A stretch of 64,000 nt of DNA from Bacteroidota bacterium (lineage in GTDB: Bacteria > Bacteroidota > Bacteroidia > Bacteroidales > P3). Shown one piece after another: positions 1,736 through 56,899 of this stretch; within the stretch, counting starts at the first letter, position 1, and every line of letters begins with the position of its first letter. Both the position numbers and the translations under genes were made by a program. The stretch lies in assembly GCA_023415495.1 (NCBI GenBank), contig JAEZKK010000023.1:145323-209322 (forward strand). Reading direction: 5' to 3'. Below the pieces are notes generated by a model. The model was not told the DNA's origin. It did not search any database and worked only from the letters and a program-made list of their open reading frames with translations.

Positions 1736-1823
1736 AAACTTATTTCCCAATAAAACGATAATACCTCAATCAATATCATTAGAGCTTAAGTTAAATTGGA
1801 AAACATCAAAGAAGAAATTACTG

Positions 1824-1855
1824 AAATCAAGAAACAAAGAATTCTTTCTTGATTT
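1824..1855 (-). terminator. 11-bp perfect hairpin closing element A
   Basis: AAATCAAGAAA / TTTCTTGATTT with the loop CAAAGAATTC. Read on the element strand, the loop is identical to that of the element B hairpin, and the stems differ by two compensated pairs. The trailing T-tract is weak. Confidence 0.45.
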
Positions 1856-2031
1856 AAAAGAATTCTTTCTTGAATAGAAAGTCACTATGGTAGCTACCAT
1901 AGCAGCATTATGGTAGCTACCACAAGGGTGTTATGGTACCTACCACACGACCCTTATCATAGCTACCATAACGTAGTTTTTGAAATTTTTTGGATTTAGA
2001 AGGAAATAAAGATTTCTATTCCTTGTGTTTA

Positions 2032-2039
2032 CAAAGATA
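2032..2039 (-). promoter_or_regulatory. -7 box (TATCTTTG on minus strand) reading into array A
   Basis: CAAAGATA on the plus strand. The surrounding sequence ATTCATTTATTTTTCGTATCTTTG is conserved with element B (ATTCATTTATTTTGCGTATATTTG). Confidence 0.55.
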
Positions 2040-2078
2040 CGAAAAATAAATGAATTATGACTAAAAAAATGTGTTTAT

Positions 2079-2975
2079 TTAGTCTTTATAAATTTCGTTT
2101 TTGTATGCTTTTAATGTGTTTTGCAATAAAGATACTATTGTCATTGGTCCTACTCCTCCAGGAACTGGTGTTATATAAGAGCATTTAGGAGCTACATTTT
2201 TAAAATCCACATCCCCAACAATTCTATAACCTTTCTCAGTCGTATTATCCTCAACTCTGTGAATACCAACGTCAATTACAACAGCTCCATCTTTAACCAT
2301 TTCTTCTTTAACGAATTCAGGCTTTCCAATTGCAACAATTAGTATGTCAGCTTCAGCACAAATCTTTTCAATATCCTTAGTCTTGGAATGGCAAAGAGTT
2401 ACTGTACTGTTTGCTAAAGGATTATTTCTCGACAAAAGTATAGCCATAGGAGTTCCTACAATATTACTTCTTCCTAATACAACTGTGTTTTTACCAACTG
2501 TATCGATATTTGAACGATTTAAAAGGTTCATTATCCCCATTGGAGTAGCTGGAACAAAACAAGGCATATTATACATCATTCTTCCTCCATTGGTTGGATG
2601 AAAACCATCAACATCCTTTCGTGGATCAATGTTTTGAATTATCTTACTCTCATCAATATGTTTTGGTAAAGGTAATTGAATAATAAAACCATCTACCTCT
2701 GGGTCTTTATTTAAAAAATCAACGGTCTTTAGCAATTCTTCTTGAGTAGTTTCAACTGGAAGTCTATAAACCGAGGAGATAAATCCCACTTCTTTACTTT
2801 GTTTTTCTTTACTTGCTACATAAGAAAGGCTTGCACCGTCTTCTCCAAGAATAACAGCTACTAAATGAGGAGCTCTTTGTCCATTATCTATTATCTCAGC
2901 TACTTCTTTTGCAATTTCATTCTTAATCTCTTTAGCTATTGCCTTCCCGTCAATTAAAATTGGTTTCTTTTCCAT
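2079..2975 (-). CDS. folD: bifunctional methylenetetrahydrofolate dehydrogenase/cyclohydrolase
   Basis: 298 aa. Motifs LPLP, DVDGFHP, VVLGRSNIVG.P and TPVPGGVGPMT are diagnostic of FolD. Confidence 0.95.
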   Translation of the reverse strand: MEKKPILIDGKAIAKEIKNEIAKEVAEIIDNGQRAPHLVAVILGEDGASLSYVASKEKQSKEVGFISSVYRLPVETTQEELLKTVDFLNKDPEVDGFIIQLPLPKHIDESKIIQNIDPRKDVDGFHPTNGGRMMYNMPCFVPATPMGIMNLLNRSNIDTVGKNTVVLGRSNIVGTPMAILLSRNNPLANSTVTLCHSKTKDIEKICAEADILIVAIGKPEFVKEEMVKDGAVVIDVGIHRVEDNTTEKGYRIVGDVDFKNVAPKCSYITPVPGGVGPMTIVSLLQNTLKAYKNEIYKD

Positions 2976-4303
2976 TATCTTCTTTTCTTAAGATTTTTCA
3001 ATGCACTTAATTTACTACCTCCCCCGCTCATCATCTTCATGGCCTTGCGGGTTTCGTCAAACTGTTTCAATAATCTATTTACATCCTCAATCGTAGTACC
3101 TGATCCTTTTGCAATTCTCTTTCTTCTGCTTCCATCAATTCTTGTTGGGTTCTCTCTTTCAAATGGAGTCATTGAACCAATTATAGCTTCAATTCCCTTA
3201 AAGGCATCATCATTAATCTCTACATCCTTCATCATCTTGCCTACTCCTGGAATCATTCCCATAAGGTCCTTGATATTTCCCATCTTCTTGATTTGCTTAA
3301 TCTGACTAAGGAAATCATTAAAGTCAAACTCGTTGGTTTTAATCTTTTTGGATAGCTTTCTTGCTTCTTGTTCATCATATTGTTCTTGAGCCTTTTCTAC
3401 TAAGGAAACAATATCTCCCATTCCAAGGATACGAGAAGCCATACGCTCAGGATGGAATACATCTAAAGCATCCATCTTCTCCCCAATACCAACGAACTTA
3501 ATTGGTTTCTTAACAATTTGGCGAATAGTCAAAGCAGCACCACCCCTTGTATCTCCATCCAATTTTGTTAATACTACACCGTCGTAATCCAATCTTTCAT
3601 TAAATGCCTTAGCAGTATTAACAGCATCTTGACCTGTCATACTATCTACGACGAAAAGAGTTTCCTGAGGATTGATTGTAGATTTAATAGATGATATTTC
3701 ATCCATCATTTCTTGGTCAATCGCTAAACGACCTGCAGTATCTACAATAACTACATTTATTCCTCTATCCTTTGCTCTTTGAACAGCGTTCTTCGCAATT
3801 TGAATAGGATTCTTTGAATCTTCAGTATAAACTTCAACTCCTATTTGCTCACCCAGAACTTGTAATTGATTAATAGCAGCAGGACGATAAACGTCGCCAG
3901 CTGTCAATAATACAGATTTTCCTTTTTTTGTCTTTAGATAATTAGCAAGTTTTGAAGAGAAAGTAGTCTTACCACTACCTTGCAAACCAGCTATAAGAAT
4001 TATTGCAGGGGAACCTTTAATATTAATTGTTTCTGCACCTCCCCCCATTAATTCGGTAAGCTCGTCCTGCACAATCTTTACCATTAACTGACCAGGCTCA
4101 ACAGAGGTTAGAACATTCTTCCCTAAGGCTTTTTGTTTAACTGTATCACAGAACTCTTTTGCAATAGCATAGCTTACGTCAGCATCAATTAAAGCCTTGC
4201 GAACTTCCTTTAGAGTATCAGCAATATTAATCTCGGTAATCTTCCCTTGACCTTTTAAAATCTTAAACGCTTTATCAAACTTTTCGCTTAAATTCTCAAA
4301 CAT
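2975..4303 (-). CDS. ffh: signal recognition particle protein Ffh
   Basis: 442 aa. SRP54 N and G domains (GLQGSGKTT, DTAGR, TKLDGD.RGGAAL) and a Met-rich M domain. The stop overlaps the folD start by 1 nt. Confidence 0.95.
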   Translation of the reverse strand: MFENLSEKFDKAFKILKGQGKITEINIADTLKEVRKALIDADVSYAIAKEFCDTVKQKALGKNVLTSVEPGQLMVKIVQDELTELMGGGAETINIKGSPAIILIAGLQGSGKTTFSSKLANYLKTKKGKSVLLTAGDVYRPAAINQLQVLGEQIGVEVYTEDSKNPIQIAKNAVQRAKDRGINVVIVDTAGRLAIDQEMMDEISSIKSTINPQETLFVVDSMTGQDAVNTAKAFNERLDYDGVVLTKLDGDTRGGAALTIRQIVKKPIKFVGIGEKMDALDVFHPERMASRILGMGDIVSLVEKAQEQYDEQEARKLSKKIKTNEFDFNDFLSQIKQIKKMGNIKDLMGMIPGVGKMMKDVEINDDAFKGIEAIIGSMTPFERENPTRIDGSRRKRIAKGSGTTIEDVNRLLKQFDETRKAMKMMSGGGSKLSALKNLKKRR

Positions 4304-4346
4304 AGTATGTAAATAGAAATGTGTTAAATCTTAATTTATTGGCTTG

Positions 4347-4354
4347 CAAAGTTA
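4347..4354 (-). promoter_or_regulatory. -7 box for ffh-folD
   Basis: CAAAGTTA equals TAACTTTG on the minus strand. Confidence 0.5.
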
Positions 4355-4378
4355 ATTCTTTTTTGCCTAACAGCGAAA

Positions 4379-5581
4379 TTAGTAAATCAAGTATTTCTCT
4401 CTTATCTTTTTAAACTCTTCTAAGTCTTTTGACCATGAGTTTTTTATAAATGTTTCAGATTGGTTTTGTTTTATCTGTGCTTTCAATTCTCTGGAGCCTG
4501 AGAGTTTGTCGAAAAAGGGTTGGAAAAATTTGTCTTTATTTGGATATGCTCTATACATTTCAATTAAATAGCTTAAATCTATTTCATTCTTTATTTCACA
4601 TTTCAATTTTAAACCATTGCATTGCTGGTTTTTGTATGGAGGATTATCACTTACTCCTTTAATTATCCTTGGAGTAAAACTTATTATATCTTTTCCTTCA
4701 AGTCTTTTTGTATAATAATTAGGAAAACCTATAATCTCAAAAGGGGTATCAGTTCCTCTACCTACACTTACTGGTGTTCCTTCAAACCAACATATTGAGG
4801 GATATAATATAATTGAGCAATCGGTTCTTAGATTTGGGCTTGGAGAAATTGGGAGTGAATATTTTGAATTATGATTATAGTTATCAATCTGTATTACTTT
4901 TAAATCGCAAATCAGATTTCCCCTTTCTCCTTCTACTCTTTTATTAGAAGTTCCTAACCACCTCTCTCCATTTATCATAAGGGCATATTCCCCAATAGTC
5001 ATTCCATAAACAATTGGCACTGGATGCATGCCGACAAAACTTACCAAATCTTTATCCTTTAATACTGGACCATCGATATAAGAAGCATTTGGATTAGGTC
5101 TGTCAAGAACTATTAATGGTATATTATTCTCGCTACATGCTTCCATAACATAGTGAAGAGTTGAGATATAGGTATAGAACCTTGTCCCTACATCTTGTAA
5201 ATCGAATATAATTATATCATTATTCTGGAATTCTTCTTTCTTTGGCTTTTTATTATTTCCATATAGCGAAATAATAGGAAGATTGGTTTTAGAATCTATT
5301 GAGGAGTTGATTGCAGCTCCCGCCTCTGCCTCTCCTCTAAATCCATGTTCAGGACAATAAATAGCCCTTAGATTTACATTTAAGCTAATCAAGCTATCAA
5401 CCAAATGAGTCTTCCCAATCAATGAGCTTTGGTTCGAAACAACACCTACCTTCTTATTTTCTAATAATGGAAGATAATCCTCAATGCATTCAGCCCCAAC
5501 CTTAATATAAGTGTGATTATCTTGGGAGAAGAGATTAGTATTAATAAAGAAAAGAATAATAAAAAGAAAGATTTGCCTCAT
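4379..5581 (-). CDS. DUF1343 family protein (exo-beta-N-acetylmuramidase NamZ-like)
   Basis: 400 aa with a signal-like N-terminus. Motifs CPEHGFRGE, FDLQDVG.RFYTY and LDRPNP are characteristic of DUF1343. Confidence 0.75.
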   Translation of the reverse strand: MRQIFLFIILFFINTNLFSQDNHTYIKVGAECIEDYLPLLENKKVGVVSNQSSLIGKTHLVDSLISLNVNLRAIYCPEHGFRGEAEAGAAINSSIDSKTNLPIISLYGNNKKPKKEEFQNNDIIIFDLQDVGTRFYTYISTLHYVMEACSENNIPLIVLDRPNPNASYIDGPVLKDKDLVSFVGMHPVPIVYGMTIGEYALMINGERWLGTSNKRVEGERGNLICDLKVIQIDNYNHNSKYSLPISPSPNLRTDCSIILYPSICWFEGTPVSVGRGTDTPFEIIGFPNYYTKRLEGKDIISFTPRIIKGVSDNPPYKNQQCNGLKLKCEIKNEIDLSYLIEMYRAYPNKDKFFQPFFDKLSGSRELKAQIKQNQSETFIKNSWSKDLEEFKKIREKYLIY

Positions 5582-7096: not shown

Positions 7097-9241
7097 ATGG
7101 AAGGAAATAAAAAAAGATTTGACCAATTAAATCGTTATGCTCGAAATTTAAACGAAGAGGCTAAGAACAACAAGCTTGACCCTGTTATTGGTCGTGATGA
7201 GGAAATTCGTAGGGTATTGCAAATTCTATCGCGTAGAACTAAGAATAATCCAATACTTATTGGTGAGCCTGGGGTTGGAAAGACAGCTATTGCCGAAGGC
7301 TTAGCTCAGAGAATTGAAAGAGCAGATGTACCAGAGAACCTTAAGGATAAGCAAATATACTCCTTGGATATGGGAGCTTTGATTGCAGGAGCTAAGTATA
7401 AGGGAGAGTTTGAGGAGAGATTAAAAGGAGTTGTGAATGATGTCATTAGTTCCAATGGAGATGTTATCCTTTTTATTGATGAGATACATACTTTGGTGGG
7501 TGCTGGAGGAGGCGAAGGCGCTATGGATGCAGCAAACATTCTTAAACCAGCTCTTTCCAGAGGGGAATTAAGAGCAGTTGGAGCAACAACCCTCAATGAG
7601 TATCAAAAGTATTTTGAAAAAGATAAGGCACTTGAAAGAAGGTTTCAAATGGTAATAATCGATGAACCATCAATTGCTGATACTATATCTATACTAAGAG
7701 GTCTTAAGGAGAAATACGAAGTACATCATAAGGTTAGGATAAAAGACTCAGCAATTATATCGGCTGCACAAATGAGTGCAAGATATATTACTAATAGATT
7801 CTTACCCGATAAGGCTATTGACTTAATCGATGAGGCAGCTGCAAAGCTTAGGATGGAAATAAATTCTTCTCCAGAGGAGATAGATGAGGTTGAAAGAAGA
7901 CTTAGACAATTGGAGATTGAAAGAGCTGCAATTAGAAAAGAAAAAGACAAGAAAAAAGAAGAGGAATTAACGAAGGAGATAGATGAATTAAGCAAAACAA
8001 AAGAAACTCTAAGAGGAAAATGGGAGAAAGAAAAGAATTTGGTCGATGCTATTCAAGATGAGGTTAAAAAGATTGAAAAATATAAGATTGATGCTACTCA
8101 GGCAGAGAGGATGGGAGATTATGGTAAGGTTGCTGAGCTAAGATATGGCAAGATTAAACAAGCCGAAACCGACCTTGAAAACTATCAAACTAAGCTTAAA
8201 GAAATTCAAGGTAATGAAGCACTTATTACCGAAGAGGTTAATGAGAACCATATTGCAGAGGTTATTTCTCGTTGGACTGGTATTCCTGTTCAAAAAATGC
8301 TTCAAAGCGAAAAAGAAAAACTAATTAAGCTTGAGGATGAATTATCTAATAGAGTAATAGGTCAATTTGAAGCAATACAAGCTGTATCCAATGCTATTAG
8401 ACGTTCAAGAGCAGGTCTTTCGGATGACAAACGACCAATAGGTTCCTTTGCTTTCTTAGGCTCTACTGGAGTTGGGAAGACCGAGCTTGCAAGAGCATTG
8501 GCAGAATTGCTTTTCGATGATGAGAATATGATGGTTAGGATAGATATGAGCGAATACCAAGAAAGACATTCTATTTCAAGACTAATTGGGGCTCCTCCGG
8601 GATATGTTGGATATGATGAGAGCGGACAATTGACCGAAGCTGTTAGAAGAAAACCTTATTCTATTGTCTTATTGGATGAGATAGAAAAAGCACATCCTGA
8701 TGTATTTAATATATTACTGCAAGTATTGGAAGATGGAAGACTAACCGACAATAAGGGAAGGGTTGTGGACTTTAAGAATACAATTGTGATAATGACAAGT
8801 AATTTAGGTTCGGAACACTTGCAAGAGGCTATTGAGTCGAGCAAAGAAAATTTTGATTCAGAGTGGAATAAAGGCAAGGAAAAGGTAATGGAATTGCTTC
8901 GAAGAACCATTAGACCTGAGTTCCTTAATAGGATTGATGAGATAATTGTATTTAAACCTTTAAGAATTGAAGAAGTTAGAGAGATTGTTGTATTGCAAAT
9001 CAATAGGCTAAAGGCTCAACTTAGAGAAAAGGATATTAGAATTGAATTTACCGATAAGGCAATTGATTTCTTAGCCGAAAGAGGTTATGAACCTTCCTTA
9101 GGAGCAAGACCAATCAAAAGAGCATTACAAAAACTTGTAATTAACGCCCTATCAATCGAATTAATAAAAGGAATAATATCCCAAGAGAACAAAATAGAGG
9201 TAGACGAAATTGATAATCAATTAGTATTTAAAAAAGTATAA
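7097..9241 (+). CDS. clpB: ClpB-type AAA+ disaggregase lacking the N-terminal domain
   Basis: 714 aa. Two AAA+ modules (GEPGVGKTA; GSTGVGKTE), a long coiled-coil middle domain between them, and the motifs [14 protein letters not shown] and GARPIKR. The protein begins about where E. coli ClpB residue 150 aligns. Confidence 0.9.
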
Positions 9242-9302: not shown

Positions 9303-11009
9303 CTATTCATAATATTCATATTCAAACCTTACCAAATAAGAAGGATGTCTTTCTTCAACAAGATTTCCTATATCATCATACTTATAATAAACATTTTCAA
9401 TATTAGAATTGTCGCTATATACTATTGTATAATCCTTGCTAAAGGGTTTGTATTTATAATCTGATATTATAATATTCCCTTCGTTATCATTAATAATTCC
9501 TCTTATTAGTTTGCCTTTTGAGTTATAGAAAAAATTAATTTTTGAAGAAAAATAAGGATAATTATAAGCGTACTCTATTAGTCTTTTATTTGAATCGTAT
9601 TTCCAATTTTTAATTATACAATAATCTAAAGTATTTCCTTTATATATTTCTTCTCTTTTATAAACTAAAGTATCATTATCATATTTATATATTTCTCTCC
9701 TATTGTTATATCCTATTATTTCTTTTTCAATTAATCTTTTTTTATCATCATACTTATATGTAGTTTGAGGAGTTTTAGTCTCGCAATCAAATCTTTTTAT
9801 TAATAATCCATTTTCATAAATCAAAGTATCAATGCTAATGTAATTTGAAAATAATTCTGGAGTTTTAATAAGAATAATTTGCTTTTCATCATTGTAGTTA
9901 TATTCTTCAACATTACTCTCTCTCCATTTAATATTTTCTCCTACACGATCTTCATAATAAAATCTTACTTTACTTGATAATGTATAATCGTTATTATATA
10001 AATATTCAATTTTATATGTTTGGTTATATGAGTCAGTTGGTTCATCAAATATCTCCTGAAGTATTTTATCATTTTTATATATGAATCTATGTATTATTGG
10101 AGGAGCATCTGCTCTATAAGTTTTGCTTTCAACCAATCTTCCTTTTTTATCTAATCTAACAACTTCTTTTTTTGGTTTTGTATAGATATCCCTTTCCCAA
10201 CTAATAGTTTGGGATTTTCTGTTTAAACTATCATAAACATAAGTCTTTGTATTAGTTAATTCATTTCTAAAATATGATTTCTTTTGTATTAAATCATTTT
10301 GAGAGTTATAAATATATATAGTTTTCTCTAAACGTTTATTTTTAAGATATTCTATTTCTTTTATTAGATTTCCTTTTTTATCGTACTTATATAGAGTGTA
10401 TTCTCCCTTTGTTTCAGGTGAATAATCTTTAATCTTTTGTCCTTTATTATTGTATTCTATTATGTAACTACTAAATTCAACATTATTATTATAACTATAT
10501 TTAGATGTGTTATTTTTATTAGAATCATAAGTGTACAAAACTCTATGTGAAAACTTACCATTAAAATCTGTAAGTTCTTCAATTAGATTATCAAATCTAT
10601 CGTATTTATAAGTTTTTATTGATTGGATACTATCATTACGATAATCCTCCTTTTTTATACGTTTACCTTTTGAATCATAGTAATACTTAGAAATTTCTAC
10701 ATAATCTCTTTTAGTATATGCACTATCTAAAACAATATTTAGATTTTCATCAAAGTATTTTACAGTTTTATTGATTCTATGATTTTTCTTGTGGATTTTC
10801 GTTTCTTTTAAGTTTTGGAAATCTACAAAGATTGATTCAGAAGGTGTTATTGTATCTAAATAGCCATCTTTGCTGTCCTCGTATGTCTTTTTGTAAAAAG
10901 ATTTTACTTTTCCCTTGAGTTTATAATCGTTTAATGATTGAGCATTAGCCAAGATAGTTAAGCAAAGAAAAACTATTAATCCCAAGAATGCTTTTAAAGG
11001 AATACTCAT
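9303..11009 (-). CDS. secreted YD/RHS-like repeat protein (no toxin domain recognised)
   Basis: 568 aa with a signal peptide (…LTILANAQS). Many degenerate Y.YD..GNLI-type repeats (YKYDRFDNLIEE, YKYDKKGNLIKE, YVYDSLNRK). Confidence 0.6.
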   Translation of the reverse strand: MSIPLKAFLGLIVFLCLTILANAQSLNDYKLKGKVKSFYKKTYEDSKDGYLDTITPSESIFVDFQNLKETKIHKKNHRINKTVKYFDENLNIVLDSAYTKRDYVEISKYYYDSKGKRIKKEDYRNDSIQSIKTYKYDRFDNLIEELTDFNGKFSHRVLYTYDSNKNNTSKYSYNNNVEFSSYIIEYNNKGQKIKDYSPETKGEYTLYKYDKKGNLIKEIEYLKNKRLEKTIYIYNSQNDLIQKKSYFRNELTNTKTYVYDSLNRKSQTISWERDIYTKPKKEVVRLDKKGRLVESKTYRADAPPIIHRFIYKNDKILQEIFDEPTDSYNQTYKIEYLYNNDYTLSSKVRFYYEDRVGENIKWRESNVEEYNYNDEKQIILIKTPELFSNYISIDTLIYENGLLIKRFDCETKTPQTTYKYDDKKRLIEKEIIGYNNRREIYKYDNDTLVYKREEIYKGNTLDYCIIKNWKYDSNKRLIEYAYNYPYFSSKINFFYNSKGKLIRGIINDNEGNIIISDYKYKPFSKDYTIVYSDNSNIENVYYKYDDIGNLVEERHPSYLVRFEYEYYE

Positions 11010-11106: not shown

Positions 11107-11406
11107 AATTTGATTCTATTTTAATATAATGCCATTATACTTGCAATATAATGGCATTATTCTTACGATATAATGGCATTATATTAGATTGGAATTTGAT
11201 AAGAGTAGATTGAGGCTTGATTATGCGAGTTTTAAACTTGATTTAAAAGCTTGGTTTTTGGGATACAACCGATGGTTTTGTTGAATTATTGTATTGAATA
11301 AGGCTTTTTCTCATCGTTTCATCCAATTAATACTCTCTAACCTTTTGTTAATTAACATTTGAGTTAAGAGAACTATCTCTTGATTCTACGAAAATAGAAT
11401 CAAATT
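11107..11406. mobile_element. MITE-like element C: 16-bp perfect terminal inverted repeats enclosing a 3 x 22-bp TAATG-S-CATTA array
   Basis: AATTTGATTCTATTTT at 11107-11122 has its exact reverse complement at 11391-11406. Dyad cores are centred at 11132, 11154 and 11176. No ORF longer than about 20 aa lies inside. Confidence 0.7.
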
Positions 11407-22785: not shown

Positions 22786-22981
22786 CAATTGTAAGGATAG
22801 AACTCTAATTTCCTTATATAAATCACCCCATTTTGTAAAACTACATTATGGTAGCTACCATAAGAGGCGTGTGGTAGGTACCATAACACCCTTGTGGTAG
22901 GTACCATAATGCTCGTGTGGTAGCTACCATAGTGAGATTGTAATCAAAGAAGAATACTTTGTAATCAAATAAGAAAAGTAT

Positions 22982-23015
22982 GGAATCAAATAAGAATTCT
23001 TTGTTATTTGATTCC
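22982..23015 (+). terminator. 12-bp perfect hairpin closing element B; may also terminate the convergent T9SS gene
   Basis: GGAATCAAATAA-GAATTCTTTG-TTATTTGATTCC. AT-rich, with only weak T-runs on both sides. Confidence 0.45.
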
Positions 23016-23033: not shown

Positions 23034-24464
23034 TTAGTTTACGATTAGCTTTTTAGAATTTGAGTATTTTCCACTTCTTAGATTTATAATATAGGTTCCC
23101 TTTCTTAGATTTCTTGTATTAATTACTAATTCTACTCTTTCATTTATTGGAGAGGACTTAATATTTTCAACCAATCTGCCTTTTATATCATAAATCAAAA
23201 TATCTAAGTCCTGGTTCAAGCCCTCAACCACAAGTTTTGCCTCAGTATTTGTAGGATTTGGATAAAGAAGAAAATCTTTTCCGTTAAAGCTAATCCCTTC
23301 TCCAAGAGAAACAATAATGTTTTTCATAGAATAATACAAATATGTTGAGTCATCACTCCAAGAATTTAAATCATCTGGGAATCCACTCGAATAAACAATA
23401 TTAGTAAGCATATTATTATAATTATCGAAGAATTCTGGCTTCATATAACCCAATTTGTCAGAAAATTGCAAAACATCATCTGAGGTATAATTATAATCAA
23501 ATAAGTTAATATACTTTTGAGTGCAAGCCATTTCTTGATTGTAATTAGTATATGTATTAATAAGGGTTTGATTATTGTTATTATCGTAATACAATGAATC
23601 AATGCTGTGAAGAACAAAGCCATCTGTTGCGTTGTGCATAAAATTATTTCTTGAAACCATTAAATTATTAGGATTGTATGTTAATGTTTGTTTCATTGAT
23701 GGCTTCCACAAGCTATCTTGATAAGCACTATAGTTTTCCATTAAGATTTGAGTAAGCAAATTATTAGAATTATAAGAGTTAAATGTTTTTGAACCATAAC
23801 TTAGCTCTCCTTCACTATTATAATACTCATTTTGTATATGTACTGGATTATTATTATTATCGTATAAATACTCAGTCTTAGAGCCAAGTTCTTCAATCCC
23901 TTCATTTTTATAATATGTTTCTATTTTGGTAATTAAATTGCTTTCATTGTAAAGGTAATCTGTCTTTCCATAATAAATCCAATAATTAGAGTCAAGGTCA
24001 AAAAAGTAATTTTCTTCTTTAGTAAGGAGATTATTTGTGTAATCCGAAAGAGTTTTCTGATTAAATAACCAGGCACTATCTATAAAAATACTCATTATCT
24101 CAGATATTTTGTTTCCGTTATTATCATAAAGATAATCGATATTCTCATGTTGGCGGAAAAAATTAGAGTCATAGTCCCAAATATAGTATAGAGTGTTAAT
24201 TAGATTCTCATTATTGTCATAAGTGTAAACATATTTACTGAATACATCCTTCATTAGGATTAATCTCCCGTATGAATCGTATTCATAAATTGTGGGTTCA
24301 TTTGGAGCATAGGCGTATGCGACGCTATCAAGCGCCATTAATTGGACATTTGCCTTTGATAAAATCTCTGATTTTGATTTGTTTTTCTCTGCTTTGCTTT
24401 GAGAAAAACTATTTTGTGAACCAATAATAATGAAACACAAAACAAGGAAGTAAATCTTTTTCAT
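23034..24464 (-). CDS. secreted YD-like repeat protein with T9SS C-terminal sorting domain
   Basis: 476 aa with a signal peptide. Carries Y.YD..G.L repeats (YEYDSYGRLI, YTYDNNENLI, YLYDNNGNKI). The C-terminus (LYPNPTN...LIYDIKGRLV...GTYIINL...KKLIVN) matches the Por/T9SS CTD pattern. Confidence 0.7.
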   Translation of the reverse strand: MKKIYFLVLCFIIIGSQNSFSQSKAEKNKSKSEILSKANVQLMALDSVAYAYAPNEPTIYEYDSYGRLILMKDVFSKYVYTYDNNENLINTLYYIWDYDSNFFRQHENIDYLYDNNGNKISEIMSIFIDSAWLFNQKTLSDYTNNLLTKEENYFFDLDSNYWIYYGKTDYLYNESNLITKIETYYKNEGIEELGSKTEYLYDNNNNPVHIQNEYYNSEGELSYGSKTFNSYNSNNLLTQILMENYSAYQDSLWKPSMKQTLTYNPNNLMVSRNNFMHNATDGFVLHSIDSLYYDNNNNQTLINTYTNYNQEMACTQKYINLFDYNYTSDDVLQFSDKLGYMKPEFFDNYNNMLTNIVYSSGFPDDLNSWSDDSTYLYYSMKNIIVSLGEGISFNGKDFLLYPNPTNTEAKLVVEGLNQDLDILIYDIKGRLVENIKSSPINERVELVINTRNLRKGTYIINLRSGKYSNSKKLIVN

Positions 24465-35980: not shown

Positions 35981-35981
35981 T

Positions 35982-38861: not shown

Positions 38862-38905
38862 AGAATTAAAAATTAAATAGCTTAGCTAAAACATCTAAGC
38901 GTTTG

Positions 38906-39022: not shown

Positions 39023-39195
39023 TTTTTTCTTGATTTCAATCTCTAATTCATGGCATGATACTCTGCATATCATGCCATGATATTGTCAGAATCATGGCAT
39101 GATGTTACCGGAATCATGGCATGATGTTGACAGAATCATGCCATGATGTTGAGAACTTCATGGCATGATGTTGAGATTGAAATCAAGAAAAAAAA
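39023..39195. mobile_element. MITE-like element D: 21-bp perfect inverted repeats enclosing a 6 x 22-bp TCATG-S-CATGA array
   Basis: TTTTTTCTTGATTTCAATCTC at 39023-39043 pairs with GAGATTGAAATCAAGAAAAAA at 39173-39193. Core centres at 39053, 39075, 39097, 39119, 39141 and 39163 are exactly 22 bp apart. Confidence 0.8.
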
Positions 39196-39428
39196 GTTTG
39201 AATCTTGATTTGATTAGTTCTTTATTTGATTTTGCTACTCTAAACTCAAGGATATTTTCTTTTATTGCAAGGATAACTTGTATTTTAAAACTCAAGAGCT
39301 GAAAGAATAGGGTTCTAAAATAAATTCAATTTGATTGGTTTCAATTTTTTATCGTATCTTTGAAGGTTAATTATACTGTCTTCTGCAGGATAATTATCTT
39401 GAAAAAAGGAAAAGATTTAAATATATAT

Positions 39429-52713: not shown

Positions 52714-53316
52714 ATGTTATTACCATATTACCAATCCCAGGATATATTAGAGTGTGGCTGCGACGAAGCTGGGAGAGGATGCCTTGCTGGTCCTGTTGTT
52801 GCTGCCGCAGTAATTCTTCCAAATGGATTTAAGAGCGAAACACTTAACGACTCCAAACAATTATCCGAGAAAAAGCGTCTAACCTTAAGAAAAGAAATCC
52901 AAGAAAATGCTCTTGCTTATTCAGTATGCTTTATAACAAATGAAGAGATAGATAAGATAAATATACTAAATGCATCCTTTAAAGCAATGAGCGTGGCTGT
53001 AAAGCAATTAAATATTCGCCCAGAATTATTATTAATAGACGGCAACCGTTTCCGCACCGATTTAAAAATCCCATATAATTGCATAATCAAAGGAGATGCC
53101 AAATACCAATCAATAGCCGCAGCGTCAATCCTTGCCAAAACTTACAGAGATGAGTATATGGAAACCTTAGCCAAAGACTACCCAGAATACAACTGGCAAA
53201 AGAACAAAGGCTATCCAACAAAAGCCCATAGAGAAGCCATTAAACAATTCGGCATCACCCCTCATCACCGCCTTACTTTTAACCTATTTGGAGAATTATC
53301 TTTATTTGAGGAATAA
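52714..53316 (+). CDS. rnhB: ribonuclease HII
   Basis: Motifs [21 protein letters not shown] and ASI.AK. ATG at 52714 is used instead of the TTG at 52684. Confidence 0.9.
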
Positions 53317-53325
53317 ATTAATAGA

Positions 53326-54456
53326 CTAATAGGTCAATTGTAGCCACCTCATTAAGAATACATCATAAACTGTAAAACTACTTCCCTCTTTGGTGTTTCT
53401 TTCTAAAATCATTTCCTTTTCAACTAATGAATTAACTACTCTCTTTGCACTTGAAGGTGTTCCGAGATTATATTTCTTAAGAAAATCATTAGAATAGATT
53501 TGCTCGATCTCTTCTTCTTTTGCAAGTGCTATTAGAAACTTCCATTGGTTAGGTGTTAGCAAATTACGATATTGGAAAAAGGAAGGTTCTTTTTCTTTAA
53601 TCAAACCAAGAGATTCGAGTTTGATAATCTCCAAATCTATTTTTTTATTTCTATAAACTTTATTACATAAACTTTGAGTATAGAATGTATATCCCTTTGT
53701 CCAATCTAAAATATAATCAATACATTCTTCTGTAATACTTTTATCTCCTTGAGAGAAATGATATTTAATAAACTCCTTGTATTTACTTCTTTCAATTTTT
53801 TCAAGATTTAGAAACTGAGTACTTGAAAAGAAAGGACGTTTTGAACTTAGGAACATCTCTGCTAATATATGTGCTTGAGAACCGCTAAAAATAAAATTAA
53901 TATTCTTAAGTTGTTGGATATATGTTCTTAGGATTGCTTCTATATTTTTCTCTGGATAGTTTACAATTTGTTGGAACTCATCAATTGCTATTATTATCTT
54001 TGTATCTTGGCTATCTAAGAATAGCAATAATTGTTTAAGGGTATATTCTTTGTCATTTTGCGATTGATAATTAAATTCAATTTGCGGAGCTCCACTTATG
54101 CTATCAAAAGTAAAACGAGGACGAAATCCCTTAATAAGAGTTAGGAACTTCTTACCAAAGGAGGTTTTCTCTGGAAACTTCTCTAATATTGCCTCTGCCA
54201 ATAATCTTATAAAGTCTTCAATATTCAATGAAGAATATATATCTACATATATTGTTTCAATATCTTTTTCATTCTTCAAAGAGTCGAAATAATGGAAGAT
54301 TAATCCCGTTTTCCCTAATCTTCTTGGAGAAATAAGGGTAGTATTTACACCATTTAAAGTGTTTTTCTTTAATATTTCATACTCTGACTCTCTATCGCAG
54401 AAATACTCCTTAGAGATATAACCGCTTATCAAAAAAGGACTTAAAGGCTTTTTCAT
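53326..54456 (-). CDS. AAA+ ATPase of the archaeal-ATPase/DUF234 type
   Basis: 376 aa. Motif F.DRE.E...L then a P-loop (SPRRLGKTGL) and Walker B (IIAIDEFQ), with a winged-helix-like C-terminus. Confidence 0.65.
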   Translation of the reverse strand: MKKPLSPFLISGYISKEYFCDRESEYEILKKNTLNGVNTTLISPRRLGKTGLIFHYFDSLKNEKDIETIYVDIYSSLNIEDFIRLLAEAILEKFPEKTSFGKKFLTLIKGFRPRFTFDSISGAPQIEFNYQSQNDKEYTLKQLLLFLDSQDTKIIIAIDEFQQIVNYPEKNIEAILRTYIQQLKNINFIFSGSQAHILAEMFLSSKRPFFSSTQFLNLEKIERSKYKEFIKYHFSQGDKSITEECIDYILDWTKGYTFYTQSLCNKVYRNKKIDLEIIKLESLGLIKEKEPSFFQYRNLLTPNQWKFLIALAKEEEIEQIYSNDFLKKYNLGTPSSAKRVVNSLVEKEMILERNTKEGSSFTVYDVFLMRWLQLTY

Positions 54457-54477
54457 AACAAATTAATTTAATCCCTG

Positions 54478-54485
54478 CAAAGATA
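54478..54485 (-). promoter_or_regulatory. -7 box for the AAA+ ATPase gene
   Basis: CAAAGATA equals TATCTTTG on the minus strand. Confidence 0.5.
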
Positions 54486-54500
54486 TAAATTAATTTTCAA

Positions 54501-54531
54501 TTACGCATAATGCGTAACGCACTTTGCGTAA
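54501..54531. promoter_or_regulatory. two overlapping 17-bp dyads built from TTACGCA/TGCGTAA heptamers, upstream of the AAA+ ATPase promoter
   Basis: TTACGCATAATGCGTAA (perfect palindrome, 54501-54517) overlaps TAACGCACTTTGCGTAA (one mismatch, 54515-54531). They lie 16-46 nt upstream of the -7 box at 54478-54485 as read on the minus strand. Confidence 0.35.
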
Positions 54532-54609
54532 TAAAATAGCTATATTCAGGTATTATTTTCCCACTTAGTTAAAAGAATTATCTTTATTTGTAGATTGAGA
54601 TTAAAAGTA

Positions 54610-54617
54610 TATCTTTG
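54610..54617 (+). promoter_or_regulatory. -7 box for the 54633 secreted-protein gene
   Basis: TATCTTTG. Confidence 0.5.
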
Positions 54618-54632
54618 CAACAAAAATTACTT

Positions 54633-55358
54633 ATGAAGAAGCTTATACTTTTTATATTCTTTTCTATTTCAATAAACAGTCTTTTTTCTCAAACTGAATC
54701 TGAGACAAGATTAAATCAAGATGACCTTTTGACAATAAGTTATTTTGACTCGACTTTTAATGATAAAGTTAATGGAGATACTCTCAGTAATTTTATTAAT
54801 GTGGAATTTATTACTGAAGAAGAGTTTAACAATCATAAGATAACAGAAGAAAACTACTTAGTTCGTGATACTCTTTCTGTTTTTAAAGACAAAGGAGTTA
54901 TTAGTTTAAACTGTAGTAGTACAACAGTAAAATATATTGATATTGATGAAGACGGCGAAAGCTTCAACTATAGTCAGTATGAATATTTTGGTCAAATTCC
55001 TTTTATAAACAAGTATGTTGTATTGGGGTACTTTTATGAATGGTTTAATTGCTTTTTAATAGATAAGGACTCGGGAAAAGAAATAGTATTATATGACATC
55101 CCAATAATCTCTCCAAATAAGAAACATATTATTTCATTATCCTATAATCCATATCTCAATACAACCGATTTTCAATTGTTTTCAATCAAAGGAAATGATA
55201 TTAATCTAATCACAGAATTACATTTTTCAAAATGGAAAACAACTGAAAGAGATAATTTCTTTTGGGGAAAAGATAATTCTTTTTACTTAGAAGTAATTCA
55301 CGCTGAGAATTATGAACAAGATAAAGATATTCACTATATAAAAATATCAATAAAGTAA
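54633..55358 (+). CDS. hypothetical secreted protein
   Basis: Signal peptide (MKKLILFIFFSISINSLFSQ). The ATG at 54633 lies 16 nt after a perfect -7 box. No family recognised. Confidence 0.5.
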   Translation: MKKLILFIFFSISINSLFSQTESETRLNQDDLLTISYFDSTFNDKVNGDTLSNFINVEFITEEEFNNHKITEENYLVRDTLSVFKDKGVISLNCSSTTVKYIDIDEDGESFNYSQYEYFGQIPFINKYVVLGYFYEWFNCFLIDKDSGKEIVLYDIPIISPNKKHIISLSYNPYLNTTDFQLFSIKGNDINLITELHFSKWKTTERDNFFWGKDNSFYLEVIHAENYEQDKDIHYIKISIK

Positions 55359-55382
55359 ATCAATGACTAAAACACTTTGCGT

Positions 55383-56135
55383 TTAGTTTGTTTTTGTCCT
55401 GTATTTTAGGGTATCTGTCCAGGATTTATAGATTTCTATTATCTCATCTTTTACCAAACCTTTCATTACCTTCATCCCTTTTAGCTCTATATATAGGTCT
55501 TTAATTTCTCTTGAGTGTTTGGTTGGACAGTTAAGGGAATTTGCAAGATAAGCCTCAAGCACCATTGGGTCAAGCTCTAATTCATATTCGCTAAGGACTT
55601 TTAATATTACCTTTGCTTTTTTAATACCAGAGGGTTGACGTAGTCCTGTCGAAATATTTATACCATTTATCAATTCCTCCAAAGCAATCTTAGCAATATC
55701 GGAAGGCTCCTCGATAAATTCCTGCTCTTTAGTTTCTATATTTATTACATTCCTTGTTTTAATCCATTCTTGGATATTCTCCTCACTGCTTGTCATTGCA
55801 ATTATTGCCTTAATTCCAAAAAGGTCTTCAAGCTTATAGGCATCGTTTGAATCCAAATCGCAACAAATAATAATATCCCTATTCGAGGATGAGCCTGTAT
55901 ATGTTTTAATAGTTTCAATCTTAATTGATAAATCACTTTCTGAAGGTCTATAACCGCTAAAAAGCCTATCAATATCAATCCCCGGAATAATATTACCAAT
56001 TAAATCAGTATCCTGCCTTGAGCGAACCACCAAAACAATCCTTTTAATATTCCCCAACTCCTTAGCAACCTCACAAGCATAATCAAAAACCCTCTCCCCA
56101 TGAGAATAAATATAAAACTTCTTTCCAATCATCAT
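55383..56135 (-). CDS. hypothetical cytoplasmic protein, N-terminal alternating beta/alpha (Rossmann-like) pattern
   Basis: 250 aa with its own -7 box (56153-56160). Hydrophobic beta-like runs (FYIYS, RIVLVV, DIIICCD, AIIAMT) alternate with helical segments. No motif I can name. Confidence 0.5.
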   Translation of the reverse strand: MMIGKKFYIYSHGERVFDYACEVAKELGNIKRIVLVVRSRQDTDLIGNIIPGIDIDRLFSGYRPSESDLSIKIETIKTYTGSSSNRDIIICCDLDSNDAYKLEDLFGIKAIIAMTSSEENIQEWIKTRNVINIETKEQEFIEEPSDIAKIALEELINGINISTGLRQPSGIKKAKVILKVLSEYELELDPMVLEAYLANSLNCPTKHSREIKDLYIELKGMKVMKGLVKDEIIEIYKSWTDTLKYRTKTN

Positions 56136-56152
56136 AATAATTATTTACCCTG

Positions 56153-56160
56153 CAAAGTTA
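56153..56160 (-). promoter_or_regulatory. -7 box for the 250-aa hypothetical gene
   Basis: CAAAGTTA equals TAACTTTG on the minus strand, 18 nt before the ATG. Confidence 0.5.
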
Positions 56161-56204
56161 CAACAAAAACCCTACACCACCCAAAGCATCAAGCCAACGC
56201 AATA

Positions 56205-56624
56205 CTATTCATCTTTCGTTACCAATCCCTTTGGTGGTTTGCGCATATTGTCGAATTTCATTTCTTTTATGGCTCTTGTTAGGGAACGTGCGGCTTTAAA
56301 GGTTACTTTTGTTGCTTTAACTTTCTTCGGATTAATATCTTTAGGGTCGTCATAGCCTTCACTGGTTACCCAAACTCCAAACACTCCAATCTTTTTCAAG
56401 TTTACATTTTCACCTTGCATTAAATGATATTCAATACGATTGGAAAGTGCAGCCACCATCCCCAATACGTCTGGTTCAGAGAAAGATGACATTTCTGACA
56501 CCTCTCTTACTAAAGTTTCTTCATCAACAACTCTTGATGTTCTTGGACATGCATAGTATTTTTCTACAACATTTCCCTCAGCATCTTTAAATTTTCTTTT
56601 CCAAATTCCGAATATTTTACTCAT
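56205..56624 (-). CDS. Bacteroidota-type long HU-like DNA-binding protein
   Basis: 139 aa. The central segment (L..G..V.L..IG.F.......G) resembles the HU beta-arm region. The layout matches the HU-related family restricted to Bacteroidota (from memory). Confidence 0.7.
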   Translation of the reverse strand: MSKIFGIWKRKFKDAEGNVVEKYYACPRTSRVVDEETLVREVSEMSSFSEPDVLGMVAALSNRIEYHLMQGENVNLKKIGVFGVWVTSEGYDDPKDINPKKVKATKVTFKAARSLTRAIKEMKFDNMRKPPKGLVTKDE

Positions 56625-56728
56625 AATCAGATAATTTTAATTTTATACTTAGTTTTAATCTTATTTATTCCCAATTCAAATTGAATTAATCCTATTTCAA
56701 ACTATTTATACAAGGTTTCTATCTCCAA

Positions 56729-56899
56729 TTCATATAATGATATAGCAAATATCATGCCATGAATTAGTTGAAATCATGGCATGAATTGGTCGGATTCATG
56801 GCATGATTCTAAGCAATTCATGGCATGAAATGGAGAACATCATGGCATGAATTCGTGTTCATCATGACATGATTCCGAGATCGAAATCAAATAAAAAAA
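56729..56899. repeat. element E: 7 x 22-bp TCATG-S-CATGA array (first and last units degenerate), paralog of D, upstream of the HU-like gene
   Basis: Core centres at 56735, 56757, 56779, 56801, 56823, 56845 and 56867. The right flank GAGATCGAAATCAAATAAAAAAAGTT...CTTGAT aligns with D's right flank. The left arm is degenerate (TTTCTATCTC versus GAGATCGAAA). Confidence 0.8.

Follow-up and report, generated by a model that had tools for sequence, protein, structure and literature searches.

What are the evenly spaced palindromes that recur between the genes of this Bacteroidales genome, and which factor could read them? An earlier note on the stretch of DNA analysed here (64 kb in full length, hereafter the window) had described five elements with a shared layout of tandem palindromic units, a period of 22 or 23 bp and flanks rich in CTTGAT arranged as inverted repeats. 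It had attributed their symmetry to dimeric proteins on double-stranded DNA, possibly one HU-like binder per sequence family, or else to inter-unit pairing or cruciforms, and had raised a kinship with the BrickBuilt elements of Porphyromonas gingivalis. Tandem Repeats Finder recovered all five arrays (A–E) where they had been described (Table 1). All are intergenic and consist of 3–6 units with 11–12-bp palindromic cores and a period of exactly 22 or 23 bp; element A is inverted with respect to B, C, D and E and has its flank module on the left. In an independent scan of the window for dyads with 5-bp arms, in which the same dyad recurred within 60 bp, the distances between identical dyads were 22 bp (n = 12) and 23 bp (n = 6), the others being 21 bp (n = 2, in the flank module of A) and 27 bp (n = 1, at 54460). 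The pattern TMATGSCATKA has 14 matches in the window against 0.32 expected, a count reached in 0 of 100 shuffles, and TGGTASSTACCA with at most one mismatch has 7 against 0.21 expected; every one of these matches falls inside an array. Families with a period of 22 bp and those with one of 23 bp share a spacer of 11 bp, the period being core length plus 11, and thus the constant in this window is the edge-to-edge spacing and not strictly the helical phase. Of the 'helical phasing' claimed previously, the period of 22 or 23 bp stands, but it may instead express this constant spacer.

Table 1. Arrays, flanks and the linked gene in the window.
Feature	Position	Strand	Description
Flank module of A	1805-1881	-	~21-bp AATCAAG/CTTGATT units
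Array A	1886-1972	-	Period 23; TGGTA-SS-TACCA; 3 perfect and 1 degenerate unit
Array C	11123-11183	+	Period 22; 3 units TAATG-S-CATTA; extended palindrome ATAATGSCATTAT
Flank modules of C	11184-11262	+	AGATT...CTTGAT units ~21 bp apart; CTTGAT at 11216 and 11237
Array B	22845-22931 (Tandem Repeats Finder: 22849-22931)	+	Period 23; 4 units TGGTA-SS-TACCA; between convergent genes
Flank modules of B	22938-23015	+	21-bp AATCAAA units
Left boundary of D	39026-39047	+	Includes inverted-repeat arm CTTGATTTCAATCTC at 39029-39043
Array D	39048-39168 (Tandem Repeats Finder: 39048-39174)	+	Period 22; 6 units TCATG-S-CATGA; between divergent pdxJ and recJ
Right boundary and flank of D	39173-39232	+	Arm GAGATTGAAATCAAG at 39173-39187, plus CTTGAT modules
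HU-HIG gene	56205-56624	-	139 aa; PF18291; candidate reader of TCATG arrays
Gene-proximal flank of E (HU-HIG gene upstream region)	56625-56751	-	21-bp AGTTTGAA modules
Array E	56752-56872 (Tandem Repeats Finder: 56751-56872)	+	Period 22; 6 units TCATG-N-CATGA (5 with S centre, 1 with A)
Distal flank of E	56873-56957	+	3 ACTTGAT modules 21 bp apart: 56907, 56928, 56949

The richness of the flanks in CTTGAT was borne out, with 9 copies within 160 bp of the arrays where 1.06 are expected, and in C, D and E these lie at similar offsets from the last core (+35/36, +56/57 and +78). Tandem Repeats Finder identified 21-bp periodic modules at 1836-1881, 22938-23004 and 56907-56957. Inverted repeats are present as well: hairpin-capable ones of 11 bp within the module of A (1824-1834 / 1845-1855) and 12 bp within those of B (22982-22993 / 23004-23015), and a perfect 15-bp pair that brackets D. 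Homologues of the flank modules of C border TAATG-family copies in other MAGs, the right flank of D is homologous to the distal flank of E, and the gene-proximal flank of E is conserved in orthologues. Across copies, the k-mers of the left flank match the reverse complement of the right flank better than its direct strand (r = 0.89 versus 0.66). Some copies show clear 23-bp inverted repeat blocks in their flanks, and the inverted-repeat alignment is moderate overall (mean score 24.6 versus 17.8 for shuffled flanks; at least 40 in 9% of elements).

Symmetry of the cores was measured on 482 phased units from other genomes, among the matches listed. In 456 of them (94.6%) the base at position 2 is complementary to that at position 10, with three pair types (C-G, A-T and T-A), in agreement with the claim that core families differ by changes mirrored in both half-sites. 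C-G and A-T units are never mixed within one array, and compensation is also seen at positions 1/11 (CAATG..CATTG) and 4/8 (TCAAG..CTTGA). The centre base is limited to S (C in 255 units, G in 218) in no fixed order: neighbouring centres are the same in 231 cases and different in 147, without alternation, and units with an asymmetric centre occur in both orientations within one array (loci L120 and L126). Centres flip to their complement far faster per site than spacers mutate (10.6% versus 1.0% and 24.7% versus 10.0% in two comparisons). Compared in register between copies, spacers are 47–70% identical and arms 99–100%, a comparison partly biased by the pattern used to find the arrays. In all, 15 of the 22 unit positions are conserved, which together with the restriction of the centre to S implies selection. 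The balance of G and C centres, the free orientation of asymmetric units and the placement of elements in all gene contexts and orientations favour the symmetric dimer on duplex DNA that the earlier note proposed over RNA structure or cruciforms.

The arrays extend well beyond the window. A pattern scan for phased dyad arrays over species genomes returned at least 105 matching stretches, about 90 of those listed being in Bacteroidales MAGs, and one MAG, UBA5515, has at least 24 array-bearing blocks of 8 kb. They apparently constitute a widespread and previously undescribed intergenic element family of uncultured Bacteroidales. Among the matches listed, 106 of 108 arrays are intergenic; the elements stand in both orientations in convergent, divergent and tandem gene contexts, many of them upstream of gene starts. 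The TGGTA family was seen only in arrays A and B among the array-bearing loci examined. Spacers of dispersed copies show in-register homology across loci as well as across species, which indicates a spread of entire elements. The pdxJ–recJ site of a related genome, CTSoil_022, lacks array D, and this genome has arrays elsewhere; the empty site is too diverged for a target-site duplication to be read. Where D is present its unit number varies between strains (6 or 3), and near-identical strains can differ in spacers, unit number and even core. Loci L137 and L138 share about 2 kb of 100% identical sequence that contains three HU-HIG genes, but carry four TTATG and two TAATG cores, respectively. 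Loci L011 and L034, conversely, have arrays identical at 44 of 44 spacer positions inside diverged flanks. About 15 of some 205 array ends have an adjacent degenerate unit, and the element ends are fuzzy when copies are aligned. Across some 880 kb of array-bearing loci, just one kind of gene recurs immediately beside the arrays, that for HU-HIG; no transposase gene recurs next to them, nor does a cognate RAYT (Y1 transposase) flanked by repeats.

The HU-HIG gene of the window has array E upstream of its start codon, at a distance of 128 bp. Its product matches PF18291 over residues 1–125 of 139 (78.5 bits against a cut-off of 26.2; E = 5.9e-22), and Pfam score and fold together place it in the HU-HIG clade. 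The AlphaFold model (mean pLDDT 86) has the HU/IHF fold, with strands at 3–13 and 19–27 before the helices and at 124–126 after them. Its best structural match is 4FMR, a homodimer (PMC5499826); HU, IHF and Hbb, among them structures in complex with DNA, come next. In the alignment, the proline with which HU intercalates is matched by a proline at the tip of the arm. At the arm position aligned to Arg53 of HU, every TCATG-linked protein of the close clade has W, proteins linked to TAATG, CAATG and other cores have G or A, and the distant TCATG-linked protein of L071 has S. Arrays lie 87–198 bp upstream of all 8 HU-HIG homologues in the pattern-selected loci, and phased dyad units lie 77–300 bp upstream in all 24 protein-selected homologue loci with enough upstream DNA, against a baseline in the window of about 4 of 57 genes with an array comparably close. 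Three more distant members (27–33% identity) also have phased dyad units upstream; among further distant members, L104 and P0080/L143 lack arrays and P0010/L155 has flank modules only. Since an array stands just upstream of nearly every examined gene of this subgroup, its proteins are likely the readers of the arrays. Two paralogue lineages each have a conserved synteny, c6-[array]-HU-c5/c11 and c7-[array]-HU-c1-c2, in which the position of the array is held across proteins with only 40–60% identity. The core proper to each lineage, TCATG or TAATG/CAATG, is retained in several MAG species despite rapid spacer turnover, even in UBA5515, where both core families are co-resident (L095 and L053).

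In our reading, which we consider about as probable as all others combined, the arrays are putative sites for symmetric HU-HIG dimers that also spread as REP- or MITE-like cassettes. Each element is a composite DNA of roughly twofold symmetry, in which inverted 21–23-bp flank modules surround 3–7 palindromic cores, with 11 bp of spacer after every core. These cores would most probably serve as double-stranded sites for homodimers of one Bacteroidota-specific HU-HIG subclade with the DNA-bending HU/IHF fold, and the even spacing would hold successive dimers in register and so build a higher-order bent nucleoprotein structure. One long-conserved resident array directly upstream of each HU-HIG gene would probably act as an autoregulatory operator, while arrays A–D would be 'orphan' copies that spread through intergenic DNA as REP or MITE sequences do and swap their central arrays by recombination. 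Several observations weigh against HU-HIG as the reader. Common descent alone would make a gene-linked array co-vary with its gene. The core swap between L137 and L138, whose proteins are identical, implies that the neighbouring proteins do not determine at least the choice of A or T at positions 2/10. Recognition by classical proteins of the HU family relies mainly on the minor groove and on DNA shape, which makes discrimination of C-G from A-T at one position less obvious. The 21-bp flank modules are not accounted for. Within the 64-kb window there is no HU-HIG gene for the TAATG or TGGTA families. The idea of an HU-like binder per family has real, if circumstantial, support in the arrays that systematically precede genes of the subclade and in the two lineages with different cores, but a strict one-protein-one-core rule is contradicted by L137/L138. 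Rapid divergence has also been taken to make HU-HIG proteins unlikely sequence-specific transcription factors (Burroughs et al., PMC5499826).

Known repeat systems share parts of this organization. REP/BIME sequences, including the IHF-binding RIB and RIP types, and REPIN-RAYT systems are likewise high-copy extragenic clusters of palindromes with other short motifs, as seen here in five arrays within 64 kb and in the blocks of UBA5515; REPIN-RAYT and REP systems also have several sequence families per genome, each tied to a cognate gene flanked by the repeat. Some REP/BIME bind an HU/IHF-family nucleoid protein, and these repeats are targets of IS elements. MITEs carrying IHF sites are a known concept (PMC10969869). 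The arrays differ in their shorter, perfect palindromes (11–12 bp versus imperfect REP hairpins of 20–40 nt), strict 22- or 23-bp period, lack of alternating orientation and host clade, and in that the linked gene encodes an HU-fold protein and not a Y1 (RAYT) transposase. In other respects they resemble the metboxes of MetJ, F-plasmid sopC and the ParR iterons, in which identical dyads are evenly spaced with less conserved DNA between them, dimers bind cooperatively to give a higher-order complex and the array adjoins the gene of its binder. In sopC, 12 repeats of 43 bp each contain a 16-bp palindrome. The half-site co-variation and the adjacent candidate binder gene of the present arrays are traits of such operators, although L137 and L138 exchange the core with proteins unchanged. 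Unlike the window arrays, each of those operators serves regulation or partition at one locus; dispersal in many copies and coexistence of several sequence families are not known for them, and they are bound by RHH or HTH proteins and not by HU-fold ones. CRISPR arrays are defined by repeats of 23–50 bp, unique foreign-derived spacers of similar length and cas genes. A CRISPR assignment was rejected: repeat and spacer are 11 bp each, spacers are register-homologous between loci and species, and no cas-like gene recurs beside the arrays in the loci examined.

Other explanations have to be weighed against HU-HIG recognition. The elements might be selfish, non-autonomous REP/BIME or MITE sequences, with cores and subterminal 21–23-bp repeats bound by a transposase or recombinase whose gene lies elsewhere; the association with HU-HIG would then stem from one old inherited insertion, or HU-HIG would be a host factor of transposition. 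We regard this as unlikely, even though it would suit the dispersed, almost entirely intergenic copies with register-homologous spacers, the presence or absence of D at an orthologous site, the exchange of arrays between copies, the flanks inverted in motif content, with subterminal repeats that resemble multi-site transposon ends, the frequent location of arrays at contig ends and the IS-like ends that abut them. HU-HIG and not a transposase recurs beside the arrays in the loci examined, however, the flank alignment is only moderate with fuzzy ends, the gene-linked arrays are fixed in synteny in a manner unlike neutral insertions, and individual old copies keep perfect cores while their spacers decay. 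Less probable still is a structural or promoter DNA with no dedicated reader, for example curved DNA or outward-facing promoters, in which mutation and not selection would create the palindromy and the centre flips, be it by template switching at quasi-palindromes or by short-patch gene conversion among units irrespective of their orientation. The rapid centre flips, the concerted and symmetric core changes between near-identical strains, the identical spacers of L011 and L034, the exact 21-bp module period, which suits intrinsic curvature, and the many arrays upstream of gene starts are compatible with it. Yet with a centre of 1 nt, arms of 5 bp fall short of what hairpin-templated repair requires, given the limits on hairpin loops, and 11-bp cores are well below the homology needed for RecA-type conversion, while the spacers between them are not homogenized; the selection seen at the cores and the one-to-one placement upstream of HU-HIG genes would also be left unexplained.

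Action at the RNA level, through transcription of the arrays in 5′ leaders, 3′ UTRs or small RNAs whose inter-unit hairpins would act as stabilizers, terminators or protein sponges, is in our view very improbable. A G-centred and a C-centred unit complement each other perfectly and could pair as a stem of 11 bp around a loop of 11 nt, the inverted repeats of the flanks might close a larger stem, and HU proteins are able to bind RNA. Against this, no Rfam family matches the window, and the excess of same-centre neighbours is the opposite of what inter-unit pairing needs. A G-T wobble is found in only 2 of 26 broken 2/10 pairs, which is no excess, wobble-compatible variant units lie on both strands of one array (L126) and the elements occur in all orientations and gene contexts. 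Direct kinship with BrickBuilt, finally, is scarcely credible, despite several similarities: the same phylum, 23-nt tandem units between distinct, non-identical flanks, an intergenic placement that is strict in BrickBuilt, tens of copies and a unit number that varies between strains (6 versus 3 in D; 4 in L137 and 2 in L138). BrickBuilt_14 even adjoins a gene for a PF00216 (HU-type) DNA-binding protein, and outward-facing promoters have been reported for these elements (Klein et al., 2015; PMC4596501). Nevertheless the two are unrelated in sequence. In BrickBuilt, the unit AGACCATAGTATCCTCTCATATG is conserved over its full length (95%) with up to 22 copies and no variable spacer, whereas the arrays combine a conserved 11–12-bp core with a diverged 11-bp spacer; its best match in the window, at 5053, has 6 of 23 mismatches and lies outside the arrays. 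The IS5-type terminal inverted repeats at the BrickBuilt leader and tail ends, GAGACCTTTGCA and TGCAAAGGTCTC, have 8 window matches with two mismatches against 4.25 expected, none of them within an element or near an array, and BrickBuilt gave no BLAST hits beyond P. gingivalis and P. gulae (PMC4596501). The relationship raised in the earlier note is therefore abandoned.

Lineage-specific expansion, fast divergence and occasional tandem gene pairs were already known for the HU-HIG clade and are also observed here, but the 2017 analysis reported neither a conserved linkage nor a DNA target (PMC5499826), and our literature search found no paper that links HU-HIG to such repeats. What is new is that one HU-HIG subclade has a conserved cis-linked array of dyad sites. 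A broader reading is possible, although we lean against it: the lineage-specific HU-HIG expansions in Bacteroidota may be matched by genome-wide families of arrays, each paralogue reading its own core, in a diversifying recognition network. The arrays would then be fast-turnover cassettes that differ in unit number, spacers, centre orientation and core type between otherwise identical strains. If true, such a network would parallel REPIN-RAYT, with a nucleoid protein that bends DNA as its basis, and it could give variable, contingency-type control of promoters or provide decoys or markers in conflicts with mobile DNA.

Tandem Repeats Finder, combined with reading of the sequence, resolved five arrays (A–E) of tandem palindromic cores with 5-bp arms. 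In a separate scan of the window for dyads with 5-bp arms, identical dyads recurring less than 60 bp apart did so at 22 bp (n = 12) or 23 bp (n = 6); the sole others were two recurrences at 21 bp in a flank module of array A and one at 27 bp, at 54460. The core TMATGSCATKA occurs 14 times in the window against 0.32 expected, and TGGTASSTACCA, with at most one mismatch, seven times against 0.21 expected, in both cases entirely within arrays. The phased palindromic arrays described in the earlier note therefore stand, and its CTTGAT-rich flanks were recovered as an approximately ninefold enrichment of CTTGAT beside the arrays, at fixed offsets of about +36, +57 and +78. The period of 22 or 23 bp that it gave was upheld with one refinement: the spacer after each core is 11 bp in the two families alike (arrays A–E), so that the constant quantity is the inter-core spacing and not strictly the period. 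A perfect 15-bp inverted repeat brackets array D. The window matches part of the ENA MAG scaffold LEMO22-1_SAMN17062668 scaffold_27 without a difference. All five arrays are intergenic, in DNA of ~32% GC, and their neighbours are ordinary chromosomal genes (folD, umuC-like, prmC-like, pdxJ/recJ and an SpoU methylase gene). Arrays C and B adjoin RHS-repeat genes, one of which carries a type IX secretion sorting domain. Scanning the window against Rfam and for tRNA genes gave no matches.

Location of the arrays and associated features; L-numbered loci are array-bearing or HU-HIG-homologue loci from other metagenome-assembled genomes (MAGs) or metagenome contigs
Feature	Location	Period (bp)	Unit or remark
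Array A	1886-1972	23	TGGTA-SS-TACCA
Array C	11123-11183	22	TAATG-S-CATTA
Array B	22849-22931	23	TGGTA-SS-TACCA
Array D	39048-39174	22	TCATG-S-CATGA
Array E	56751-56872	22	TCATG-S-CATGA
RHS-repeat gene beside C	9303-11009		internal 36-nt repeats, spacings 372 and 633 bp
RHS-repeat gene beside B	23034-24464
Window HU-HIG gene	56205-56624		139 aa, next to array E
TAnnTTTG match before pdxJ	38890-38905		TATTTTTG
TAnnTTTG match before recJ	39300-39330		TATCTTTG
339-aa HU-HIG paralogue	L053:4790-5809, L096:1851-2870, L117-L119:3001-4020		TAATG-linked
Tandem distant HU-HIG genes (2-3)	L137:1501-2909, L141:1501-2813		behind single composite array element
Module sets without array	L151-L153, ~150 bp upstream of pdxJ; L155:1350-1420		21-bp TTGATT / ATTAGAATCAA
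IS-like ends at arrays	L019:1-60, L041:~100-160, L109:~20-55, L114:~60-105, L012:~7840-7880, L108/L110 upstream
IS-like ends at arrays, further	contig starts of L016, L018, L031 and L047; end of L013

Three TNATGNCATNA cores at 22-bp spacing were sought in a single genome of each GTDB species, and at least 105 stretches matched. Among the matches listed, ~90 are from uncultured Bacteroidales/Bacteroidetes MAGs, with at least 24 blocks in UBA5515, at least 17 in CTSoil_023 and at least 10–11 in each of three others. A few matches bear the names of other phyla and seem to be accidental or mis-binned; L071, for instance, carries the very element seen at the Bacteroidales locus L079. The anatomy was described from 108 arrays containing 482 phased units, with core positions 2 and 10 left free by the search pattern. 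These mirrored positions are complementary in 456 of the 482 units (C–G in 300, A–T in 140 and T–A in 16), so that the half-site covariation noticed earlier holds across genomes, and no array of this set mixes C–G with A–T units. Counts of the centre base are C 255, G 218, T 8 and A 1. Arrays hold 3–7 units and have sharp edges, a degenerate unit adjoining only ~15 of ~205 ends. Their flanks mirror each other in motif content (k-mer r of 0.89 for the left flank against the reverse complement of the right, 0.66 direct), and in GC-richer MAGs they take the form of simple 23-bp tandem repeats, some four per side, in inverted orientation. Of the 108 arrays, 106 are intergenic; tandem, divergent and convergent contexts all occur, and gene starts are faced about as often as gene ends. 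As for strict terminal inverted repeats, flank alignments scored moderately above shuffled sequence and were strong in 9% only; alignment of 27 TAATG-family copies found no sharp element ends, the ends being fuzzy.

Further period-22 dyad families that had not been sought appeared in the same loci (AAACGSCGTTT, AGGACTWAGTCCT and AAGTCWGACTT). Mixed arrays exist at low frequency: the TCATG arrays at L035 (~7118) and L045 (~1041) end with one unit of another type (CAATGCCATTA / TAATGGCATTG), and in L136 one ATAATAGCGTTAT unit is interleaved between two AAGAGTGGCACTCTT units. Sets of 21-bp modules also occur with no palindromic array, which makes the flank modules a separable component. In several MAGs, dyad arrays adjoin, or are partly replaced by, one of two IS-like termini (…TGTCAACCTTATTCAGGACGGGTCA, or …CCTATTTCAGGAAACGACA in CTSoil_023), often at contig ends, with the IS bodies unassembled. 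BIMEs are targets of IS1397, and by analogy this suggests that insertion sequences may target the present elements.

Sequence comparisons indicate that whole elements have been copied to dispersed sites and that the arrays are not local expansions. Aligned in register between loci and species, spacers are 47–70% identical and arms 99–100%, the arm figure being partly biased by the array-finding pattern; variation within the unit falls on the seven positions in its middle, with the 2 bp flanking the core on each side conserved. Between pdxJ and recJ, array D is nearly unchanged among conspecific strains; where PdxJ is 97% identical, one strain has three units only, with other spacers, and at 85% another species shows no dyad array but four 21-bp TTGATT modules. 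At the same site CTSoil_022 (72%) lacks the element, ~125 bp separating two conserved promoter-like boxes, and has arrays elsewhere in its genome. When the elements were checked for Bacteroidetes promoter motifs, by eye only, clear TAnnTTTG boxes lay outside element D, and no promoter is claimed for the elements themselves; the position and conservation of these boxes indicate that D was inserted between two divergent promoters. The matches to TAnnTTTG (the Bacteroidetes −7 consensus) on either side of D are both kept across species at this locus, also in L151 and L154.

Turnover within the arrays is rapid, spacers changing ~20 times as fast as the DNA around them. In the closest array pairs, centres flip to the complement at 10.6% per site versus 1.0% for spacer change, and in the next divergence bin at 24.7% versus 10.0%. 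The window and the metagenome contig L107 are 98–100% identical over ~4.7 kb aligned, with an identical HU-HIG protein, yet array E and its L107 orthologue differ at 19 of 55 spacer positions and have two of six centres flipped, with none of 60 arm positions changed. Array E is 73% identical to an array of another species versus 65% to its L107 orthologue. On one contig, L011 and L034 lie 12.5 kb apart with identical arrays and clearly diverged flanks, and L137 and L138 are identical over ~2 kb, yet carry four TTATGSCATAA and two TAATGSCATTA units, respectively. Together, these cases indicate that the central array behaves as a cassette replaced or reshuffled by recombination, with its cores kept perfect. 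In the comparison with L107, an indel of ~480 bp (L107 3400-3900) immediately follows the shared HU-HIG gene, and collinearity is lost ~1.7 kb past it (beyond L107 4700), with 98–100% identity upstream. In the mutation spectrum of the spacers, complement transversions made up 38% of differences, a share not plainly unusual for AT-rich sequence, and no inversion signature is claimed there.

All ORFs of the array-bearing loci were clustered to find recurrent neighbours. The sole protein family always immediately beside an array comprises homologues of the window gene adjoining array E, and no other convincing recurrent neighbour was found in these loci. The gene encodes an HU-HIG protein (PF18291, 78.5 bits), and array E lies upstream, its near end 128 bp from the start codon. 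In the pattern-selected loci, eight of eight homologues have an array 87–198 bp upstream. As an unbiased test, JGI metagenome contigs were searched with protein alignment alone, giving 30 loci. Separately, a word-indexed protein search from the one HU-HIG sequence yielded ten close relatives only, and an alignment search was needed beyond it. Three of the 30 loci are without any upstream DNA and three are cut less than 240 bp upstream, one starting with a CAATGCCATTG unit and two with an IS-like end at the expected place of the array. The remaining 24 of 24 have phased dyad units 77–300 bp upstream.

The core upstream is TCATGSCATGA for proteins 58–100% identical to the window HU-HIG, TAATGSCATTA at 49–58%, CAATGSCATTG at 54–57%, ATAAC-NNN-GTTAT at 50%, AAGARTGSCAYTCTT at 32–41% (a group including L136, which matches residues 1–28 only, at 61%), and both AATAATGSCATTATT and TATAATGGGGTTATA at 39%. 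HU-HIG genes at 27–33% identity, which often lead a tandem set of two or three, are preceded by 23-bp inverted flank repeats and a 22-bp dyad array with cores TTATGSCATAA, CCTCAAGSCTTGAGG or GCTTATGGCRTAAGC. Paralogues more distant again are without arrays (L104, P0080) or, in one case, have flank modules only (P0010/L155). In L155, the homologue adjoins a restriction-modification pair (N6_N4_Mtase and RE_CfrBI). Neither TGGTASSTACCA arrays nor a cognate gene for arrays A and B were found in the fetched loci beyond the window. Linked arrays hold conserved syntenic positions in two paralogue lineages, and UBA5515 has both, each with its own core (L095 TCATG, L053 TAATG). Since arrays are often swapped and flanks are similar in both families, yet the pairing of lineage and core is stable across species, this pattern argues for functional coupling beyond shared descent. 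The core swap between L137 and L138 shows that such coupling is not strict for A/T at the mirrored positions (2 and 10). An HU-like binder for each array family, as proposed earlier, agrees circumstantially with the adjacent HU-HIG genes and lineage-specific cores, but a strict match of one protein to one core is contradicted by these two loci, which differ in core in otherwise identical DNA.

The AlphaFold model of the window HU-HIG (mean pLDDT 86) shows the HU/IHF fold with an additional hairpin at the N terminus. The closest structure is the HU-HIG homodimer 4FMR, followed by HU, IHF and Hbb, DNA complexes included, and in sequence alignment the arm-tip proline coincides with the intercalating proline of HU. 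The arm residue aligning with HU Arg53 is W in all close-clade TCATG-linked proteins and G or A where the cores are TAATG, CAATG or others, a pattern confounded by phylogeny; the distant TCATG-linked L071 has S at this position. The TAATG-linked 339-aa paralogue consists of an HU-HIG domain, a hydrophobic segment and ~200 C-terminal residues that end …LTLSLKF and resemble an outer-membrane beta-barrel. In L121, which shares the synteny, only a ~140-aa HU-domain-like region (3001-3411) is evident and no 339-aa ORF was called.

The best-supported reading, on sequence grounds, is that the cores would be duplex-DNA sites of a two-fold-symmetric protein, given the mirrored half-sites, the G:C centre of free orientation, the occurrence of asymmetric units in both orientations and the indifference to strand and gene context. 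The preference for dimeric proteins on double-stranded DNA over an RNA hairpin within the unit, already expressed in the earlier note, is retained on these features. Function at the RNA level appears improbable and was rejected, as G and C centres do not alternate between neighbouring units (231 same versus 147 different) and an excess of wobble is absent at broken 2/10 pairs. The dispersed copies could instead belong to a selfish element served by a transposase encoded elsewhere, which we regard as unlikely, and an origin that is purely structural or mutational seems less probable again. Membership of BrickBuilt, the Porphyromonas gingivalis MITE with a 23-nt tandem unit to which the arrays had been tentatively related, is very improbable: unit sequence and terminal repeats are both unmatched, and the likeness is one of architecture only. 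The closest known counterparts otherwise are REP/BIME elements (IHF-binding in some cases), the REPIN-RAYT system, and tandem palindromic operators and centromeres (metboxes, sopC).

For duplex-DNA sites of this kind, the most likely reader is predicted to be the adjacent HU-HIG dimer. The gene-linked array would be its operator, and the orphan copies A–D would be further predicted binding arrays, spread in REP/MITE fashion. In a palindrome array, spacer centres are dyad axes no less than core centres. As the spacer length common to both period families would allow, the site that the protein reads could instead be CATGA-N11-TCATG, with the spacer in its middle.

To our knowledge, HU-HIG proteins have no known target or function. 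Few DNA-binding families of Bacteroidota are as expanded or evolve as fast, and one Bacteroides genome carries 22 HU-HIG copies (PMC5499826). Burroughs et al. (2017) described these expansions, saw no linkage that is conserved and considered sequence-specific binding unlikely (PMC5499826). Searches of the available literature for HU-HIG or Bacteroidales linked to such repeats found no connecting paper, and the link of the array elements to this enigmatic family appears new and is testable. A dyad array conserved in cis, with variants that track paralogues, offers concrete DNA targets for EMSA or DAP-seq on HU-HIG specificity. A further outcome is the definition of an abundant repeat family, at which assemblies break, in uncultured Bacteroidales of digesters, sediments and guts; its micro-evolution is unusual, with perfect cores, fast spacers and complement-flipping centre pairs. 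These features bear on genome annotation, strain typing and the co-diversification of repeat families and their binding proteins.
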